A stretch of 64,000 nt of DNA from an uncultured cyanobacterium (GTDB lineage Bacteria; Cyanobacteriota; Cyanobacteriia; Cyanobacteriales; Nostocaceae). Under the pieces are notes generated by a model. The model was not told the DNA's origin. It searched no databases and saw only the letters and a program-made list of their open reading frames with translations. Positions 16,806-38,313 of the stretch are shown in pieces. Both the position numbers and the translations under genes were made by a program. The stretch's first letter is position 1. Every line of letters begins with the position of its first letter. The stretch spans positions 4,992,001 to 5,056,000 of the forward strand of contig OY970166.1 of assembly GCA_963706595.1 (NCBI GenBank), in the 5' to 3' direction.

Positions 16806-16959
16806 TACAGCAGTTTTTATGTATTTGAACCACAATTATTAGACCTAACCCCCAGCCCCTTCCCTACAAGGGAAGGGGGGTCAATCAAAGCCTCTCTCCT
16901 TGCAGGAGAGAGGTTTGGAGAGAGGTCGGTTTGTGGTCTATTTACCTGAAAATAGCTGT
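16806..16959. mobile_element. MITE-like element (TACAGC...GCTGTA) with internal GC hairpin repeats
   Basis: Imperfect TIRs; internal CCCCTTCCC-TACAA-GGGAAGGGG and CCTCTCTCCT-TGC-AGGAGAGAGG hairpins. Confidence 0.6.
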
Positions 16960-17035
16960 AAGATTAAATCGGCGGTTAAAAACCGCATCTACACAGGCTA
17001 AACCAAGAATCTCCGTGTCTTTAGACCAGAGAGTG

Positions 17036-18544
17036 TCAACGCATATCATAGCCGAATAAATTCGGATCGACTTCTCCTAAATTTAAATCTGCTAAACCAT
17101 ATTCAGCCCATCGTTTGTCTACCATCGCGGCTATATCTGGATCTGATTCTAAGGGCGAACCCCATTCGTGGTCTGTTTCTGGGGGAATCTTGGTCGTTGC
17201 ATCAATTCCCATTCGTCCACCTAAACCAATTTTCTCACTAGCAAAATCTAAGGTATCAAAGGGTGTGTTGGGCAAAATAAACACATCCCGACTGGGGTCA
17301 ACTTTGGAACTAATTGCCCACACTACTTGACGCGGATCACGAATATTGATATCTTTATCCACGACAATCACAAATTTGGTGTAGGTAAATTGGGGTAAGG
17401 CACTCCAAAAGGCTAAAGCCGCCCGTCGCGCTTGTCCTGGATATGCTTTATCAATGGAAATAATCGCGGCTTTGTAACTTAAAGCTTCCATTGGTAAGAA
17501 GAAATCGACAATTTCGGAGACTTGTTGCCGCAGAATAGGAGTGTAAATCCGATTGAGTGCGATCGCCATCATTGCTTCTTCTTTCGGTGGACGACCGCTA
17601 AATGTGGTTAAATAAATTGGATCTTTGCGGTGGGTCATACATTGGAACCGCACTAATGGCGAATCTTCTACACCGCCGTAGTAACCCATGTGATCACCAA
17701 AGGGACCATCTGGTAATACTTCCCCTGGTGTAATTGTTCCTTCTAAAACAAACTCAGAATCGGCGGGAACTTCCAAATCTACGGTTTTACACTTGGCTAA
17801 GTTGACACCGGAACCACCATATAGTCCCGCAAATAACCATTCCGATAAATCTACTGGGATAGGTGTCGCAGCTGCCATGATAATTAAAGGATCTACTCCC
17901 AGTGCGATCGCCACTTCTAATTTTTTACCACGTTCAGCAGCTTTGCGTAAATGTCTCGCCCCACCGCGCACAGATAACCAGTGAACAGTCATCGTATTTT
18001 TGGATTGCAGTTGCAAGCGATACACACCCACATTTGGCGTACCCGTTTCACAATCCTTAGTAATTACCAAACCTAGAGTGATAATCTTACCAGCATCATT
18101 TATATAAGGACGAATCAAGGGCAATTTATTTAAATCTAAATCATCGCCTTGAATTACGACTTGCTGACAAGCTGGGAAAAAGTCTCTTCCTGGTTTCGCC
18201 TTCACCACATCAAACAGCACCTTCCCAAAGTCTATAGCTTGGGAAATCTTCTTTGGTGGTTTTGGTTGTTGCAGCATCCCCAGCTTCTTACCCAGAGTTT
18301 CCAACTCCTCTGGATGCTCCATATTCATTGCCCAGCATATCCTTTCCACCGTTCCCATCAAATTGATTGCCACCGGGAATGATGCACCTTTCACGTTCTC
18401 AAATAACAACCCTGGACCACCTTGTTGCAGCATTCGGTTGCAAATTTCCGCAATTTCAAACTCTGGGTCAACCAAAGCCGAAATTCTCTTTAATTGTCCT
18501 CTTTCTTCCAGAATTTTGATGAATCCCCGTAAGTCTCTTGCCAT
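17036..18544 (-). CDS. ubiD: UbiD-family prFMN-dependent decarboxylase (plastoquinone pathway)
   Basis: MARDLRGFI, NVGVYRLQ, DGPFGDHMGYY, GIDAT motifs. Confidence 0.93.
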   Translation of the reverse strand: MARDLRGFIKILEERGQLKRISALVDPEFEIAEICNRMLQQGGPGLLFENVKGASFPVAINLMGTVERICWAMNMEHPEELETLGKKLGMLQQPKPPKKISQAIDFGKVLFDVVKAKPGRDFFPACQQVVIQGDDLDLNKLPLIRPYINDAGKIITLGLVITKDCETGTPNVGVYRLQLQSKNTMTVHWLSVRGGARHLRKAAERGKKLEVAIALGVDPLIIMAAATPIPVDLSEWLFAGLYGGSGVNLAKCKTVDLEVPADSEFVLEGTITPGEVLPDGPFGDHMGYYGGVEDSPLVRFQCMTHRKDPIYLTTFSGRPPKEEAMMAIALNRIYTPILRQQVSEIVDFFLPMEALSYKAAIISIDKAYPGQARRAALAFWSALPQFTYTKFVIVVDKDINIRDPRQVVWAISSKVDPSRDVFILPNTPFDTLDFASEKIGLGGRMGIDATTKIPPETDHEWGSPLESDPDIAAMVDKRWAEYGLADLNLGEVDPNLFGYDMR

Positions 18545-30858: not shown

Positions 30859-31578
30859 ATGGCTCCCGCCAAGATTCTTGTAGTTGATGACGACCCTGCG
30901 GTCCGAAATTTAATCCAACGCTTTTTGATGAAGCAGACCTATCAGGTGGAGGCTGCTGAGGATGGTAAAACAGCCTTAGCCCTATTTGAGCAATTCAACC
31001 CAGATTTGGTAATTTTAGATGTAAATTTACCAGATGTGATTGGGTTTAACCTCTGCCAGGAAATGCAAAGTCGTAATGGTGTTTTTGTGTTGATGCTGAC
31101 TAGCCGCGCTGACGAAGCCGACAAAATTCGCGGCTTTTCTAAAGGTGCTGATGACTATCTCACCAAGCCATTTGGACTGGGAGAGTTAGAAGTGAGAGTA
31201 GCGGCAATTTTGAGACGACAGCGGATTGTGACTACCGCTGAACAGAAACGTCTAGTATTTGAAAAGTTAATGATCGATCCAGCACGACGGGAGGTCGCAC
31301 TGAACAACCAAGCAATACCCTTAACTGCGCTAGAATTTGACTTATTGCATTTTCTCGCTAGCCATCCGGGTAGAGTCTGGCGACGTGCAGAACTGATTCA
31401 AGAGGTCTGGGATTATGAATATGTTGGCGACCAACGGGTTGTAGATGTACACATCGGTCAAATTCGTAAAAAGATTGAAATCGATGCTAGCCAACCAGCA
31501 CTAATTCAAACCGTACGTGGCGTAGGGTATAAGTTTGAATGTCCCGCTCACTCCCCGCAGTTGGAAACTCATTCGTAA
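30859..31578 (+). CDS. OmpR-family DNA-binding response regulator (no kinase adjacent)
   Basis: ILVVDDD, LDVNLP, KPF receiver motifs; winged helix VDVHI...TVRGVGY. Confidence 0.93.
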   Translation: MAPAKILVVDDDPAVRNLIQRFLMKQTYQVEAAEDGKTALALFEQFNPDLVILDVNLPDVIGFNLCQEMQSRNGVFVLMLTSRADEADKIRGFSKGADDYLTKPFGLGELEVRVAAILRRQRIVTTAEQKRLVFEKLMIDPARREVALNNQAIPLTALEFDLLHFLASHPGRVWRRAELIQEVWDYEYVGDQRVVDVHIGQIRKKIEIDASQPALIQTVRGVGYKFECPAHSPQLETHS

Positions 31579-31615
31579 GTGCATCGTCTCTGGTCTAGAG
31601 TTTTTTACGATTCGT

Positions 31616-31657
31616 GAGGCGTAAAACCCCCGTCATTTATGCGGGGGAGTGCGTCAA
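31616..31657 (+). mobile_element. Isolated IS200/IS605-type end hairpin ending in GTCAA
   Basis: CCCCCG-TCATTTATG-CGGGGG then AGTGCGTCAA, the layout of an IS605 right end. Confidence 0.55.
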
Positions 31658-32997: not shown

Positions 32998-33008
32998 TCT
33001 TTCCCCTG

Positions 33009-33659
33009 CTATCGCCTACGTTCTTGTAACTTGCGATATACTGAGTTTAAATCCACCTGATGATGTGCTAAGGCAACCAGCGTATGATAGAGTAAATCTG
33101 CAACTTCACCTGCGATCGCATCCTCCTCATCATCCTTAAACGCCATTACTACCTCAGCGCTTTCCTCGCCGATCTTTTTTAAAATTTTGTTATCGCCACC
33201 TGCAAATAACTTACAGGTATAAGAAGTATCCACCGGATTGTCACGGCGATCGCATATCACCTGAAAGACTTGAGATAATGTATCCCCTGGTGGGGCGACA
33301 ATTGTCCCTTCAACTTGATGAAAACAACTACGTTCACCAGTGTGACAGGCAATATCTCCTAGTTGCTCCACTCCAATGAGTAGTGCATCACTATCACAGT
33401 CATAACGGACACTTTGCACTTTTTGAATGTGTCCAGAAGTTGCTCCCTTATGCCATAACTCCTGCCGAGAACGACTCCAAAACCAAGTTTCCCCAGTTTC
33501 TAAAGTCTTTTTTAATGATTCCTGACTCATCCACGCCATCATTAAGACAGTGCCATCCAAATAATCTTGGATAATCGCCGGCACTAAACCCCGGTCATCG
33601 TAGCAAATCTTATCAATAGGAATAGACTGTGGTAGTGAATGCGGATCAGTAGAAAACAT
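33009..33659 (-). CDS. hisIE: Bifunctional PR-AMP cyclohydrolase / PR-ATP pyrophosphatase
   Basis: [37 protein letters not shown]. Confidence 0.96.
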
Positions 33660-33752
33660 ACCAGCTAATTTGTTCTCATTAAACATTATTGATGGATTCA
33701 CGATACCATTCTGAATAGAGCATCTGGTATGCTTATTTAAAATTCAACTTGC

Positions 33753-33951
33753 TCATTCAGCTTCAACAAAAGCACTGCTATTTGTAGTAGACTGCATCTT
33801 TACAGCACTTAAGGCTAGTTGGGGGGCTTTAGAAGCTTCTCCATACCAATGGATTGCCGAGTTCAAAGCAGGCCGGTAAAGATCCTGGCAAGCCTGGTGA
33901 TAATTTAGTGCGAATCTGTAAAAGCAAGCCTTCATCGGACTTGCATAACAT
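33753..33951 (-). pseudogene. ChaB-like small protein gene with a +1 frameshift
   Basis: ATG 33951 gives MLCKSDEGLLLQIRTKLS; after one extra base the other frame reads QACQDLYRPALNSAIHWYGEASKAPQLALSAVK; total length 3n+1. Confidence 0.6.
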
Positions 33952-34058
33952 ATTGTTATTTTTCTGGTTGGGATAACGCTATAAGGTAGAATTTCTCAAC
34001 AGTTTTTAACCCTATCCTAAGACAGAGCTTTTTATTTCCCATTATTTAGGAGAGAGCC

Positions 34059-35357
34059 TTGGTAAATACCACAATTAAAACCACAAAATCACAAGAAATT
34101 TTTGCCGCAGCCCAAAATCTCATGCCGGGAGGAGTGAATTCTCCAGTTCGCGCCTTCAAATCGGTTGGCGGGCAACCCATCGTTTTTGATCGAGTTAAAG
34201 ACGCATACATTTGGGATGTAGATGGCAACCAATATATTGATTATGTTGGCACTTGGGGTCCGGCTATTTGTGGTCATGCCCATCCAGAGGTCATCGCAGC
34301 GCTCCATGAAGCCTTAGAAAAAGGCACTAGCTTCGGCGCTCCTTCATTCCTAGAAAATGTTCTGGCAGAAATGGTAATTGATGCCGTTCCTAGCATTGAA
34401 ATGGTCAGATTTGTGAATTCCGGCACCGAAGCTTGTATGGCAGTGCTGCGGTTAATGCGGGCTTTCACAAACAGAGAGAAAATCATTAAGTTTGAAGGTT
34501 GTTACCACGGTCACGCTGATACATTCCTCGTCAAGGCTGGTTCTGGTGTAGCCACACTGGGTTTACCCGATTCGCCAGGAGTCCCCAAATCATCAACCAT
34601 CACTACCCTCACAGCTCCCTACAATGACTTGGAAGCAGTGAAAGTCTTGTTGGAACAAAACCGCGACGAGATAGCTGGGGTGATTCTGGAGCCAGTAGTT
34701 GGCAATGCTGGATTTATTACCCCGGATGCTGGTTTTCTAGAAGGTTTACGAGAACTTACCCATGAACATGGGGCTTTGCTAGTCTTTGACGAAGTAATGA
34801 CAGGTTTTCGGATTGCTTATGGTGGCGCTCAGGAAAAATTTGGTGTCACACCAGACTTAACAACCTTGGGTAAGGTTATTGGTGGAGGCTTGCCAGTGGG
34901 AGCCTACGGTGGTCGTCGGGATATTATGTCAATGATTGCTCCCGCAGGCCCTGTGTATCAAGCGGGAACTCTTTCGGGTAATCCCTTAGCAATGACGGCT
35001 GGGATTAAAACCCTGGAATTGTTACAAAGACCTGGAACTTATGAGTATCTAGATCAAATTACTCAGAAGTTAGCAAGTGGTTTAGTACAGATTGCCCAAG
35101 AAACTGGTCATCCAGCTTGTGGTGGTCAAATTAGCGCTATGTTTGGCTTATTCTTTACATCTGGACCAGTGCATAACTACGAAGATGCCAAAAAGTCAGA
35201 TATGGCTAAATTTGGTCGCTTCCATCGCGGGATGTTAGAGCGCGGTGTTTATTTAGCACCTTCTCAGTTTGAAGCTGGTTTTACCTCTTTGGCTCACACT
35301 GAAGCCGATATTGACCAGACTTTAGCAGTTGCACGAGAAGTTCTATCTAGTTTATAA
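34059..35357 (+). CDS. hemL: Glutamate-1-semialdehyde 2,1-aminomutase
   Basis: [33 protein letters not shown]. Confidence 0.98.
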
Positions 35358-35419
35358 GTCGTGAGTGCTGAGTGATGGGTAGAGAAATAACTCAGGTTTA
35401 GCCAGCACTCAGCACTGTC

Positions 35420-35495
35420 CGAGGGCATCAGGGAACAACCAGGAAAACCAAGCAGTGATTCTGGGAATCCCCATCCCTCTATAGGTGGAGAGGAT
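35420..35495 (+). mobile_element. IS200/IS605 (tnpB) right-end remnant, interrupted 5 bp before its terminus
   Basis: ...CCAAGCAGTGATTCTGGGAATCCCCATCCCTCTATAGGTGGAGAGGAT; the expected terminal GTCAA is found at 35679-35683. Confidence 0.65.
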
Positions 35496-35678
35496 TTGAC
35501 ATACCTCCTCTTCCTGAAGGAGAGAGGATTCCTTAACGCTTCATTGGGTTGTGCTATCGAAATAGTCTTACCATCCCTCGACGTTCGTTTAAAGTCTCCC
35601 AATGCCCTGTGGCGACTATATTCAAATTTTACCAGAAAGCCGTCCTAAAAGTACGGGGCTTGTATCCCATTATTCTCG
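35496..35678 (-). mobile_element. Non-autonomous IS200/IS605-derived element (PATE-like), probably encoding an omega/reRNA
   Basis: Minus strand: TTGAC | left-end hairpin AAGCCCCGT...ACGGCTT, TGGTAAAAT, structured core, right-end hairpin GAATCCTCTCTCCTTCAGGAAGAGGAGGTATGTCAA; no transposase ORF. Confidence 0.75.
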
Positions 35679-35679
35679 G

Positions 35680-35841
35680 TCAACAGCCACAGCCTTTATG
35701 GTTACAGCCTTTGATAGTTTTATGACCTTCAGCACAGCCTTCAGAACAATAGTATTGATCTTCTTTTTTGATGGCATCCTCAAGTGAAACAATACATAAG
35801 CAATTGGGACAAGCGCATTTCATTTGGGTTACGGTAGTCAT
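35680..35841 (-). CDS. smtA: Bacterial metallothionein (53 aa; absent from the ORF track)
   Basis: MTTVTQMKCACPNCLCIVSLEDAIKKEDQYYCSEGCAEGHKTIKGCNHKGCGC; SmtA/BmtA Cys/His pattern. Confidence 0.96.
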   Translation of the reverse strand: MTTVTQMKCACPNCLCIVSLEDAIKKEDQYYCSEGCAEGHKTIKGCNHKGCGC

Positions 35842-35880
35842 ATTTTTTTTCCATTCATGTTTGAATAATTATTATCTTAC

Positions 35881-35906
35881 AATACCTGAACATATATTCA
35901 ACTATT
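35881..35906. promoter_or_regulatory. SmtB/ZiaR-type 12-2-12 operator
   Basis: AATACCTGAACA-TA-TATTCAACTATT, 40 bp upstream of the smtA start. Confidence 0.85.
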
Positions 35907-36240
35907 CTTGATATATTTAAATTTGTGAAGATACAAAGCAGAGAAACTTAAGATGATTTGAGGAAATTACGTATATTTACTGTTGATGCCAAATTAACGG
36001 CCGATTAAAAATCTAAAATGGGTATTTTACACTAAAAGAAGAGCATGGACACTATTTGGGAGTGTAAGTATCAGAAATAATCTGGTTTTAGTAATTATCG
36101 TACGTAATCCTGAGTTAAGTTTAGGAACTCTTCAAAGAATTTACCGCAGAAATCACCTAGCAAGAGTGAATTAGGAGTGCTAATAATTAAAAGAGAGTGT
36201 AACGCTTCGAGTCATTATTCGTGCAGCGAGTTGACAGTGC

Positions 36241-37845
36241 ATGAGCTATTGCTTAAATCCTACCTGCCTTAGTCCAGAAAATCCGGCATATAGCCACAGG
36301 TGCCAGTCATGTGGCTCGCGATTATTATTGCGCGATCGCTATCGGGTGGTCAAACCATTAGGTCAGGGTGGCTTTGGAGCAACATTCTTAGCTCATGATC
36401 AAGCCTTACCAGGAGAACCAAGTTGTGTAATCAAGCAACTACGCCCTTCAGGAACCGCACCACACATCTTGCAAATGGCGCGAGAGTTATTTGAGCGAGA
36501 AGCCAAAACTCTAGGTAGGATTGGGAATCATCCCCAAGTACCAAGGTTACTTGACTATTTTGAAGAGCAAGAACAATTCTATTTAATTCAAGAATATATT
36601 AGTGGTGCAACACTGCAACAAGAGGTCAAACTCAATGGTTTCTTCAGCGAAACTGGAATCAAACAATTTTTGAGCGAGACTTTGCCGTTGGTGCAGTATA
36701 TCCACGAGCAAAAAGTCATTCACCGTGACATCAAGCCAGCCAATTTAATTCGCCGGACTCAAGATGCCAGAATGGTGCTGATTGACTTTGGTGCTGTCAA
36801 AAATCAAGTCAGCCAAGCTGCACTCAATCAATCGGGACAGACAGCATTAACTGCTTATGCCATTGGGACTCCTGGTTTCGCACCTCCAGAGCAAATGGCT
36901 ATGCGTCCAGTCTACGCCAGTGATATCTACGCCTTGGGTGTTACCTGTATTTATCTACTGAGTGGCAAAACTCCTAAAGATTTAGATTACAATCCCAAAA
37001 CAGGCGAGATGATGTGGGAACATTTGGTGCAAGCAAGTGACCATCTAACTACTGTGCTGCGAAAAATGTTAGATGTGTCAGTACGCAATCGCTACCAGTC
37101 AGCCGAAGAAGTACTCAGAGCCTTAGACATAGAACCTTATTTGGAAAGTTTAGCCCAGGGTTTGCTGGTTAAATCTGATTCTAGTGCGAAAGCGCCAACA
37201 TATAGCCGCCCGGAAAATTCTGCTGTTTTATGCAACAACTCTTCTGCTGCTGTTAGTAGTGGAGGTAGTGCAGCACAAATGGCGGCAGCAATTCGAGCTA
37301 GACGAGCCAAGAAAGCCGAAGCTGGGGGAATGGGTCAGGGAACTGTGGCAGGCAAATCAAGAACTTTTGACAGTAATACCAGTGTTACTGCACACACCAA
37401 AAGTTCTCAAGAGCGCAAATTAAATCCCCAAAGTTTACTAACAGCTTATCTCAAGGGAAGACGGGATTTTGCTCTACACAATTTAAGTTTTCTGAAATTA
37501 CCGAACGCTGACTTATCCGAAACAAATTTTCATTCTGCTCAATTCCAAGGTACTAATCTCCAAGGTGCTAATCTTTACAATAGCGACTTTGGCAGAGCTA
37601 GTCTCACTAAAGCAATTCTGAAGGATGCTAATCTGAGTAAAGCCTATTTCCACCATGCTGATTTAGAAGGCGCAGACCTACGAGGCGCAGACCTCAGCGA
37701 TGCCTATCTCCGAGGTGCTAATCTCCGAGGTGCTAATCTGTGTGGTGCTAATCTCACTGGTGCCAAGGTTTCTGATGAGCAAATAGCGTTAGCGAAAACT
37801 AATTGGAAAACAATACGTCCCAATGGTAAACGAGGTCTATTGTAA
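36241..37845 (+). CDS. Ser/Thr protein kinase with C-terminal pentapeptide repeats (SpkB-like)
   Basis: N-terminal 4-Cys motif, LGQGGFG, HRDIKPAN, DFG, A(N/D)LxG repeats. Confidence 0.93.
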   Translation: MSYCLNPTCLSPENPAYSHRCQSCGSRLLLRDRYRVVKPLGQGGFGATFLAHDQALPGEPSCVIKQLRPSGTAPHILQMARELFEREAKTLGRIGNHPQVPRLLDYFEEQEQFYLIQEYISGATLQQEVKLNGFFSETGIKQFLSETLPLVQYIHEQKVIHRDIKPANLIRRTQDARMVLIDFGAVKNQVSQAALNQSGQTALTAYAIGTPGFAPPEQMAMRPVYASDIYALGVTCIYLLSGKTPKDLDYNPKTGEMMWEHLVQASDHLTTVLRKMLDVSVRNRYQSAEEVLRALDIEPYLESLAQGLLVKSDSSAKAPTYSRPENSAVLCNNSSAAVSSGGSAAQMAAAIRARRAKKAEAGGMGQGTVAGKSRTFDSNTSVTAHTKSSQERKLNPQSLLTAYLKGRRDFALHNLSFLKLPNADLSETNFHSAQFQGTNLQGANLYNSDFGRASLTKAILKDANLSKAYFHHADLEGADLRGADLSDAYLRGANLRGANLCGANLTGAKVSDEQIALAKTNWKTIRPNGKRGLL

Positions 37846-37852
37846 TTTCAAA

Positions 37853-37890
37853 TACAAAAGACTGAACCTATATCAGTCCAGTCTTTTGTA
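37853..37890. terminator. Probable bidirectional terminator
   Basis: TACAAAAGACTG...CAGTCTTTTGTA perfect 12-bp stem just after the kinase stop. Confidence 0.7.
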
Positions 37891-37904
37891 GGAACGCATT
37901 CTTT

Positions 37905-38313
37905 TACAGCACATTTCATCTGAGTGAGGTACACAAGGGGGGTCATGATGCCCACCCCACAAGATTTTAGAACTTACGCACTTTACAAATTAATCAGGGT
38001 ATGCTTTCAATAAAATAGGTCGTTTCAGACTTTTATCCCCGATTATTTTGATTGTAAATAGACCAGCATTGTAGGGGTTTAGCATTGCTAAACCCTGACG
38101 AAAGATATGGTTTTTGACAATACATATTTAATATTAATTGTCAATGCGTAACTTCTAAATTTATAGTATTATAGCAACCGCTAAGGTGCTTAGGACAAAA
38201 ACAGATTATAAAACCCTTGTAATTCAGGAGTTTTAAGCCTGCCCCCTGCTATAAAATGTGTGGCGTTGCTGAAACCAAGTTAGGTGTAGAGACATGACAT
38301 TTCACGTCTCTAC
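37905..38313. mobile_element. Cluster of nested MITE/SDR fragments between the convergent kinase gene and recA
   Basis: TACAGCA-type end at 37905; TAGAACTTACGCA...TGCGTAACTTCTA TIR pair (37968-38157); TGTAGAGAC...GTCTCTACA palindrome near 38285-38313. Confidence 0.65.

Follow-up and report, generated by a model that had tools for sequence, protein, structure and literature searches.

Within the window (the whole 64,000-nucleotide stretch of DNA analysed here, from an uncultured cyanobacterium of the Nostocaceae), a protein-free insert of 183 bp interrupts the right end of another IS605-type element, raising the question of what this insert is and whether its nested position matters to other transposons. 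A sequence-only reading had proposed a stand-alone guide-RNA gene using TnpB in trans, whose nested guide would direct TnpB against, or home the insert into, uninterrupted IS605 right ends, which implies that the nesting is selected or is consequential for other IS605 elements. All features described in that reading are present at their positions, with the insert at 35496-35678 following TTGAC and ending in TCAA on the minus strand, and its excision rejoins GGAGAGGAT to GTCAA without target duplication. As set out below, the guide-RNA gene itself stands up well, the element being mobile and protein-free, with its own -10 box, a conserved predicted omega-RNA and a cognate tnpA/tnpB in the genome, whereas the targeting of sibling ends does not fare as well. 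Coordinates are collected in Table 1.

Table 1. Features of the nested element, its predicted RNA and its surroundings, in window coordinates.
Feature	Position	Strand	Basis
PATE, 183-bp protein-free IS200/IS605 element	35496..35678	minus	BLAST copies, target, boundaries
Target/TAM TTGAC (plus strand: GTCAA, terminus of the host right end)	35679..35683 (35683-35679)	minus	
Left-end guide tetranucleotide CAAG and subterminal hairpin, putative TnpA site	35636..35662	minus	likeness to IS605 left end
Extended -10 box TGGTAAAAT; predicted start ~35620-35618	35626..35634	minus	conservation across copies
Scaffold of the predicted TnpB omega-RNA, 122 nt: 5' stem; pseudoknot (predicted) pairing 35606-35602 with 35502-35498; central stems; right-end hairpin	35496..35617	minus	covariation, covariance model R1
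Central stem CTAT-TTCG-ATAG	35565-35554	minus	
Right end: GAAT at hairpin foot, hairpin 35528-35506, terminal TCAA 35499-35496	35496..35531	minus	
Predicted 16-nt guide, antisense to host right-end hairpin	35480..35495	minus	flank 3' of right end
Host: decayed right-end remnant with 3' part of omega-RNA, other IS605/IS1341-type family, target TTTAA	35420..35495	plus	
Upstream host gene, 432 aa	34059..35357	plus	3' end conserved at orthologous site, 10/10 genus genomes

BLAST of the 183-mer against its own genome (G000) gave 19 alignments, which resolve to nine full copies, one right-end-only copy and four left-end-only matches. The nine full copies are 180-207 nt long and 84-100% identical, with flanks that are all different; every one follows TGAC (five TTGAC, three CTGAC, one ATGAC), eight terminate in GTCAA and one in GTCAC, and no target duplication was found in any of them. 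So many near-full-length copies go beyond a chance pattern. No ORF of at least 60 aa is contained in the 183 nt, and the element has IS605-related subterminal hairpins at both ends, lacks terminal inverted repeats, and shows a right-end layout that we take to resemble the IS608 arrangement. PATE matches are present in 24 of 40 relatives, and the orthologous site is free of both the PATE and the host end in all ten genus genomes. Judged from its sequence, the element at 35496-35678 is a recently mobile member of the PATE class.

Several other structures were observed in the same genome. Five of the nine copies (1428461, 4847235, 2015115, 1098255 and 350285) carry a 23-nt insert in the left-end hairpin, at the point corresponding to window 35651-35652, which we take to be akin to a small cyanobacterial dispersed repeat, and the copy at C1:3448392-3448579 splits an open frame, with at least 73 stop-free codons on either side of the empty junction. 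A second family comprises eight near-identical 466-bp elements ending in GTCAC (C1: 839500, 4978168, 351154, 2226091, 502084, 3047881, 3257352 and 3718133), whose left 120 nt are common to a tnpA-bearing IS605 near 4057900; it is probably another non-autonomous IS605 derivative. At C1:3662915-3662962, TTTAC is followed by an element of ~46 nt made up of a start resembling a left end, a single hairpin and GTCAA, apparently a PATE reduced to its termini.

For a wider sample, we took 129 right-end copies with differing 3' flanks among the matches listed, using a search pattern that fixed the PATE-type hairpin and by design excluded tnpB-linked relatives with another hairpin. The named records sharing this right end are, among the matches listed, cyanobacteria or uncultured cyanobacterial bins. 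The whole 5' stem of the predicted RNA is kept in 106 of the 129, and a tnpB C-terminal motif was found directly upstream of the RNA in none of these 106. Before the 72 TGAC-type copies listed, the 5-mer is TTGAC in 52, CTGAC in 13, ATGAC in five and GTGAC in two; in a tally from a rough regex that includes off-by-one duplicates, the guide tetranucleotide follows the target type across the loci listed (TGAC-CAAG 61, TTAT-AAAA 15, TTAC-AAAG 4). Between the ends of one omega-RNA element (L017, G034:C1:152041-152164 plus ~800 nt upstream) lie two small genes, which by eye appear to resemble a type II toxin-antitoxin pair.

In 84 of 101 copies among the matches listed, the first stem of the RNA is preceded at 4-11 nt by a TAnnnT box, against 168 of 1032 background positions (16%). 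The spacing of the box is 6-8 nt in 73 of these 84, and its middle positions vary; across different left-end types the spacing is kept, with variation of the box at tolerant positions only. A consensus scan for a -35/-10 (sigma-70) pair found none at the PATE. In TTAT-type relatives, additional conserved sequence separates the left-end hairpin from the omega-RNA; it falls between a -10 box and the scaffold, which is unchanged, and comes in two types (170-176 nt in L018, L103, L161 and L170; 127-144 nt in L106, L141, L142, L143 and L151). Seven of these nine loci were scanned against Rfam, none with a match; the additional sequence is possibly an undescribed 5' RNA domain.

Of 83 distinct scaffolds among the matches listed, 58 were aligned. 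On this alignment, a hand-drawn structure of 38 pairs has 94.2% of its cells paired, compared with 39-45% in slid controls, and two-sided changes occur in 18 of the 38 pairs, a count that none of 500 shuffles equalled, although the structure was drawn from the same, related sequences and the shuffle control therefore overstates covariation. RNAalifold independently recovers the central stems and the right-end hairpin. The five pairs of the predicted pseudoknot, whose 3' side was fixed by the search pattern, are paired in 99.3% of cells, four being invariant and none covarying. A further alignment (A2), which includes four weak hits, was fitted to the model and is for that reason not counted as independent covariation.

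With covariance model R1, omega-RNAs that immediately follow tnpB genes reach 89-122 bits over their full length, so that the proposed omega-RNA is matched to tnpB-linked RNAs, although not to any Rfam model: a scan of window 33000-38000 returned four matches at E up to 10, none inside the PATE, and 13 related loci gave four matches at chance level. Single-sequence folding is no better than that of shuffles (z 0.05; z 0.70 with the guide). A group I intron (IStron) reading, prompted by a motif likeness in the PATE RNA, was dropped because the motif is the omega-RNA first stem, which is also found after tnpB genes; no Rfam intron model matched. The modelled structure makes 35496..35678 very probably a gene for a stand-alone TnpB omega-RNA, with a putative function.

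A search of the genome for proteins that might serve such an element gave 39 TnpB zinc-finger matches (PF07282) and six Y1 transposase matches (PF01797). Two apparently intact IS605 copies with divergent tnpA and tnpB (G000:449020 and 675531) follow TTGAC and end in GTCAA; nucleotides 1-43 of the PATE are 93% identical to their left ends, and among 39 right ends theirs are the closest to the PATE, both by alignment and by covariance model. Their TnpAs, 141-codon ORFs, match PF01797, and their TnpB, of 406 codons at G000:449497, matches PF07282 as well as solved TnpB chains (E 1e-56) and, by eye, keeps acidic residues at three RuvC motifs (DMG, EDL, DRD). Run on the whole genome, R1 ranks the ten PATE copies first (104-145 bits), followed by these two IS605 copies (89 and 88) and a right-end remnant of the same IS (64), all other matches scoring at most 50 (the next tnpB-linked one 49.5). 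Among metagenome loci in which a PATE-type 5' stem follows tnpB, several of them near duplicates, all eight proteins are 67-76% identical to this resident TnpB and at most 49% identical to any other TnpB of the genome. The cognate tnpA/tnpB envisaged in the sequence-only reading is thus present, with a shared left end and the closest omega-RNA, and these sequence likenesses make the two copies the likely trans partners of the PATE. Between the PATE RNA and the omega-RNA belonging to the resident TnpB there is clear divergence (144 vs. 89 bits), so that cross-loading is an assumption.

Taken together, the element is probably a recently mobile IS200/IS605-family PATE acting as a stand-alone omega-RNA gene. 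The IS605 copies at G000:449020 and 675531 would supply the Y1 TnpA that mobilises it in trans, and a transcript of ~138 nt from ~35619 would be loaded on their TnpB, with 16 nt of flank used as guide. The window copy would have inserted tail-to-tail into what was left of an older TTTAA-type IS605, and the likeness of its guide to other IS ends would be a by-product, too imperfect for efficient cutting anywhere in its own genome. We favour this explanation on the strength of the copies and their boundaries, the TGAC target, the empty orthologous site, the left end common to two IS605 copies, a TnpB bearing RuvC motifs, the R1 ranking, the 8/8 metagenome TnpBs, the covariation and the -10 conservation, together with the rare nesting and poor off-site targets described below and the literature. 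Counted against it are the flat single-sequence folds, the lack of an Rfam match and of a -35/-10 pair, the diverged resident omega-RNA, and one nesting probability of 0.033.

The scaffold also occurs in contigs assembled from RNA libraries, of which four of 20 listed runs were used. Three contigs match the locus without differences (X1, 35334-35603; X5, 35218-35476; X6, 35442-35596), X1 and X6 covering scaffold and junction, and contig X2 joins the scaffold to the flank of another genomic copy. Such contigs document presence in RNA libraries of three studies, and strand, start, level and DNA carry-over are not readable from them. Three contigs break off at 35596-35603, close to where the 5' end is predicted, and most of the upstream gene is uncovered in X1; because repeats break contigs, these ends are not counted as evidence of a start. 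X1 and X2 carry the 23-nt hairpin insert at the window locus itself, which indicates that strains differ there.

A passive passenger, mobilised by TnpA while its omega-RNA goes unused in its own genome, is an unlikely alternative to the stand-alone omega-RNA gene; its scaffold and -10 box would have been inherited from a parent, or no resident TnpB would accept the RNA. Such disuse would fit a TnpB binding and a start site that are predicted, an RNA that differs from the resident TnpB's own, and a single-sequence fold that is unexceptional, as well as two copies that keep both ends having lost the central stem (L092) or most of the scaffold (L160). It sits less easily with the full 5' stem in 106 of the 129 copies listed, with a -10 box of constant spacing across left-end types that varies only at tolerant positions, and with central stems that covary in gene-less copies; central stems are not known to be needed for a DNA right end.

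What, then, does the nested position mean? The locus is flanked by the 432-codon gene (ending at 35357), which we take to be the glutamate-1-semialdehyde aminotransferase gene hemL, and by conserved downstream DNA. Positions 35428-35495, joined to GTCAA at 35679-35683, align to the right ends of relatives' tnpB elements (L070, L071, L075). In this respect the complete right end first described is real, but the host itself is a remnant of only ~80 nt, lacking left end and tnpB, that has diverged from intact family ends by one substitution and one missing base. TTTAA precedes the left ends of L071 and L076, two of three relatives inspected (the third, L079, being ambiguous), and at the empty orthologous site it stands before the same flank in five of ten genus genomes, with TTAA in eight of ten; in G004, TTTAA at this site is followed by a fragment that shares 21 of 23 positions with the left end of L071, as judged by eye. 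No uninterrupted copy of the host end was found in the PATE's own genome.

The terminal GTCAA of the remnant is TTGAC, the target, when read on the opposite strand, which would explain a tail-to-tail landing in it. Probably, a TTTAA-type IS605 inserted and was stripped of its left end and gene, and the PATE, before or after that loss, entered the terminal GTCAA from the opposite strand. GTCAA might instead be native host DNA (two of ten orthologues read GTTAA), but this is less likely: the alignment of the rejoined end with tnpB right ends extends through GTCAA, and the family target TTTAA lies at the junction. Two weak IS605 right-end-like remnants ending in GTCAA were also noted on the plus strand of the window, at 16940-17039 and 31559-31657 (16.5 and 16.4 bits).

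The guide was scanned against all 39,069 TGAC sites of its own genome, and the two best seed matches are both IS605 right ends, as guidance against siblings would predict. The best, at G000:3791412, where a tnpB element has its right end, pairs at 11 of 12 seed positions with a mismatch at guide position 7, and at 11 of 16 overall; the second (G000:3562664) pairs at 10 of 12 and likewise at 11 of 16. No site among the 39,069 reaches 13 of 16 matches, however, and chance alone gives 11-12 of 16 for the guides of the nine other copies. The guide is thus directed at IS ends, as the sequence-only reading had it, but imperfectly, with the position-7 mismatch and without any uninterrupted host end to serve as target; six intact family right ends in relatives, likewise checked, all mismatch position 7 and match at no more than 11 of 16. 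The passages on ISDra2 TnpB in PMC10097598 describe a need for ~12 TAM-proximal pairs and tolerance of distal mismatches, with double mismatches in positions 1-12 abolishing cutting and distal ones reducing it; single mismatches, and the combination of one seed and four distal mismatches at the best target here, fall outside the cases in those passages. A near-perfect 12-16-nt target next to a TAM at an uninterrupted IS end, which the proposed anti-sibling role would call for, was not found in its own genome. Recombinational homing into another copy would also be unlikely, since the homology between donor and target would be confined to one side of the cut. A further idea, that the guide is hidden by a hairpin of its own, was dropped, the 34-nt flank folding no better than shuffles (z 0.38).

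Nesting of this kind is also rare, being seen in one of ten copies in the PATE's own genome and in two of 128 other copies among the matches listed (L146 and L197). A regex on the 129 copies had flagged L001, L146 and L173; on inspection by eye, L173 was dropped, as it lacks an IS-end hairpin, and L197 was added. Against a background taken from the PATE's own genome only (~32 GTCAA ends, 14,490 TTGAC sites, 3,448 of them non-coding under a rough ORF mask), at least two nested among 128 is above expectation for all TTGAC sites (P 0.033) and compatible with chance for non-coding sites (P 0.33). The total of ~32 ends was completed by hand, a strict right-end census (27 ends) having missed PATE ends; with its 15 strict GTCAA ends, the non-coding P is 0.11. 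Since PATE copies rarely interrupt open frames (one of nine full copies in this genome clearly, perhaps a second), the non-coding probability is the fairer figure.

Across 401 genomes of the order, in which PATE copies were not counted, the junction pattern occurs in the window only and in none of the 400 others. The reciprocal junction occurs in one of 389 family genomes (G002), where an IS605 with tnpA and tnpB (L059, G002:C1:1305141-1307100) lies tail-to-tail in the PATE's own right end, its guide antisense to the PATE family right end. The recurrence of tail-to-tail nesting in L146, L197 and this reciprocal case would favour a consequence for siblings; yet in G002 an intact-ended target with ten contiguous matches coexists with the reciprocal element. 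The nesting of the window copy looks like an accident, not a weapon against other transposons.

In cyanobacteria, GTCAA terminates many IS605 right ends; its opposite strand reads TTGAC, the target, and such ends could be landing sites that turn an incoming element's guide against other transposon ends. Four such junctions were observed, namely that of the window copy, those of L146 and L197, and the reciprocal one in G002. That self-promoted omega-RNA PATEs now and then gain anti-transposon guides in this way, a spacer-like route of IS conflict, seems to us a doubtful proposition; if nested copies did cut other IS ends, it would be a natural way to aim TnpB guides at rival transposons, although cutting by the guide of the window copy is unlikely. 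The same gene-less scaffold occurs with left ends of three target types (TGAC, TTAT and TTAC), so that TnpBs of more than one clade might take it up. Very improbable, with imperfect targets, rare nesting at a frequency compatible with chance at non-coding sites, and homology on one side only, is the model in which the nested guide of the window copy homes into, or is in conflict with, uninterrupted IS605 right ends.

A shallow literature search, covering titles and abstract openings, found neither this cyanobacterial PATE family nor tail-to-tail nesting; the Extended Data of Meers et al. or ISfinder entries could already list such elements. A gene-less PATE with an omega-RNA used in trans is an already known kind of element. 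The part of Meers et al. considered here (10.1101/2023.03.14.532601) states that PATEs often encode omega-RNAs needing the TnpB of other IS in trans, and the PATE-like elements of Geobacillus stearothermophilus described there are, like the present one, gene-less, with both ends, and inserted 3' of a TAM without duplication. Unlike those elements as described in that part, the present family is cyanobacterial and has the target (T)TGAC, with a conserved -10 box, interchangeable left ends and a nested copy. A PATE with IStron ends is mentioned in a passage of 10.1101/2023.11.20.567912.

Stand-alone omega-RNAs of OMEGA systems function in trans, in a role called unknown (Altae-Tran 2021, as summarised in a passage of PMC10691335). 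Both those RNAs and the PATE are mobilised without effector or transposase, with effector loci in the same genome; trans activity has been shown for the former, in effector families that the passage leaves unspecified, and is a prediction for the latter. A clean, widespread cyanobacterial transposon that carries nothing but a guide RNA, and for which both a candidate TnpA/TnpB pair and a covariance model are to hand, this family should be convenient for asking what stand-alone omega-RNAs do, the role left blank in that passage (PMC10691335).

PATEs were defined in Haloquadratum walsbyi (PMC3119063, in part), and a 271-nt PATE of Halanaerobium hydrogeniformans keeps a left hairpin, a tnpB 3' tail and a right end (PMC7290912, in part). 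Multiple copies, near-terminal palindromes, deletion of the IS605 core, and the absence of terminal inverted repeats and of target duplication are common to those elements, as characterised in these passages, and to ours; a guide RNA is not a subject of the passages on them (PMC3119063, PMC7290912). Nested mobile elements in IS605 and PATE ends are common in Haloquadratum, but according to the same source (PMC3119063) they are mostly SMR-A repeats in palindromes, whereas here a PATE occupies the terminal GTCAA. The ISDra2 omega-RNA, in the passages of PMC10097598, has a scaffold of ~116 nt with four stems, a pseudoknot between its last bases and a 5' loop, and a 16-nt guide, the same layout as that predicted for the 122-nt PATE scaffold; the ISDra2 RNA overlaps tnpB and has the TAM TTGAT, whereas the PATE RNA stands alone, with a putative TAM of TTGAC.
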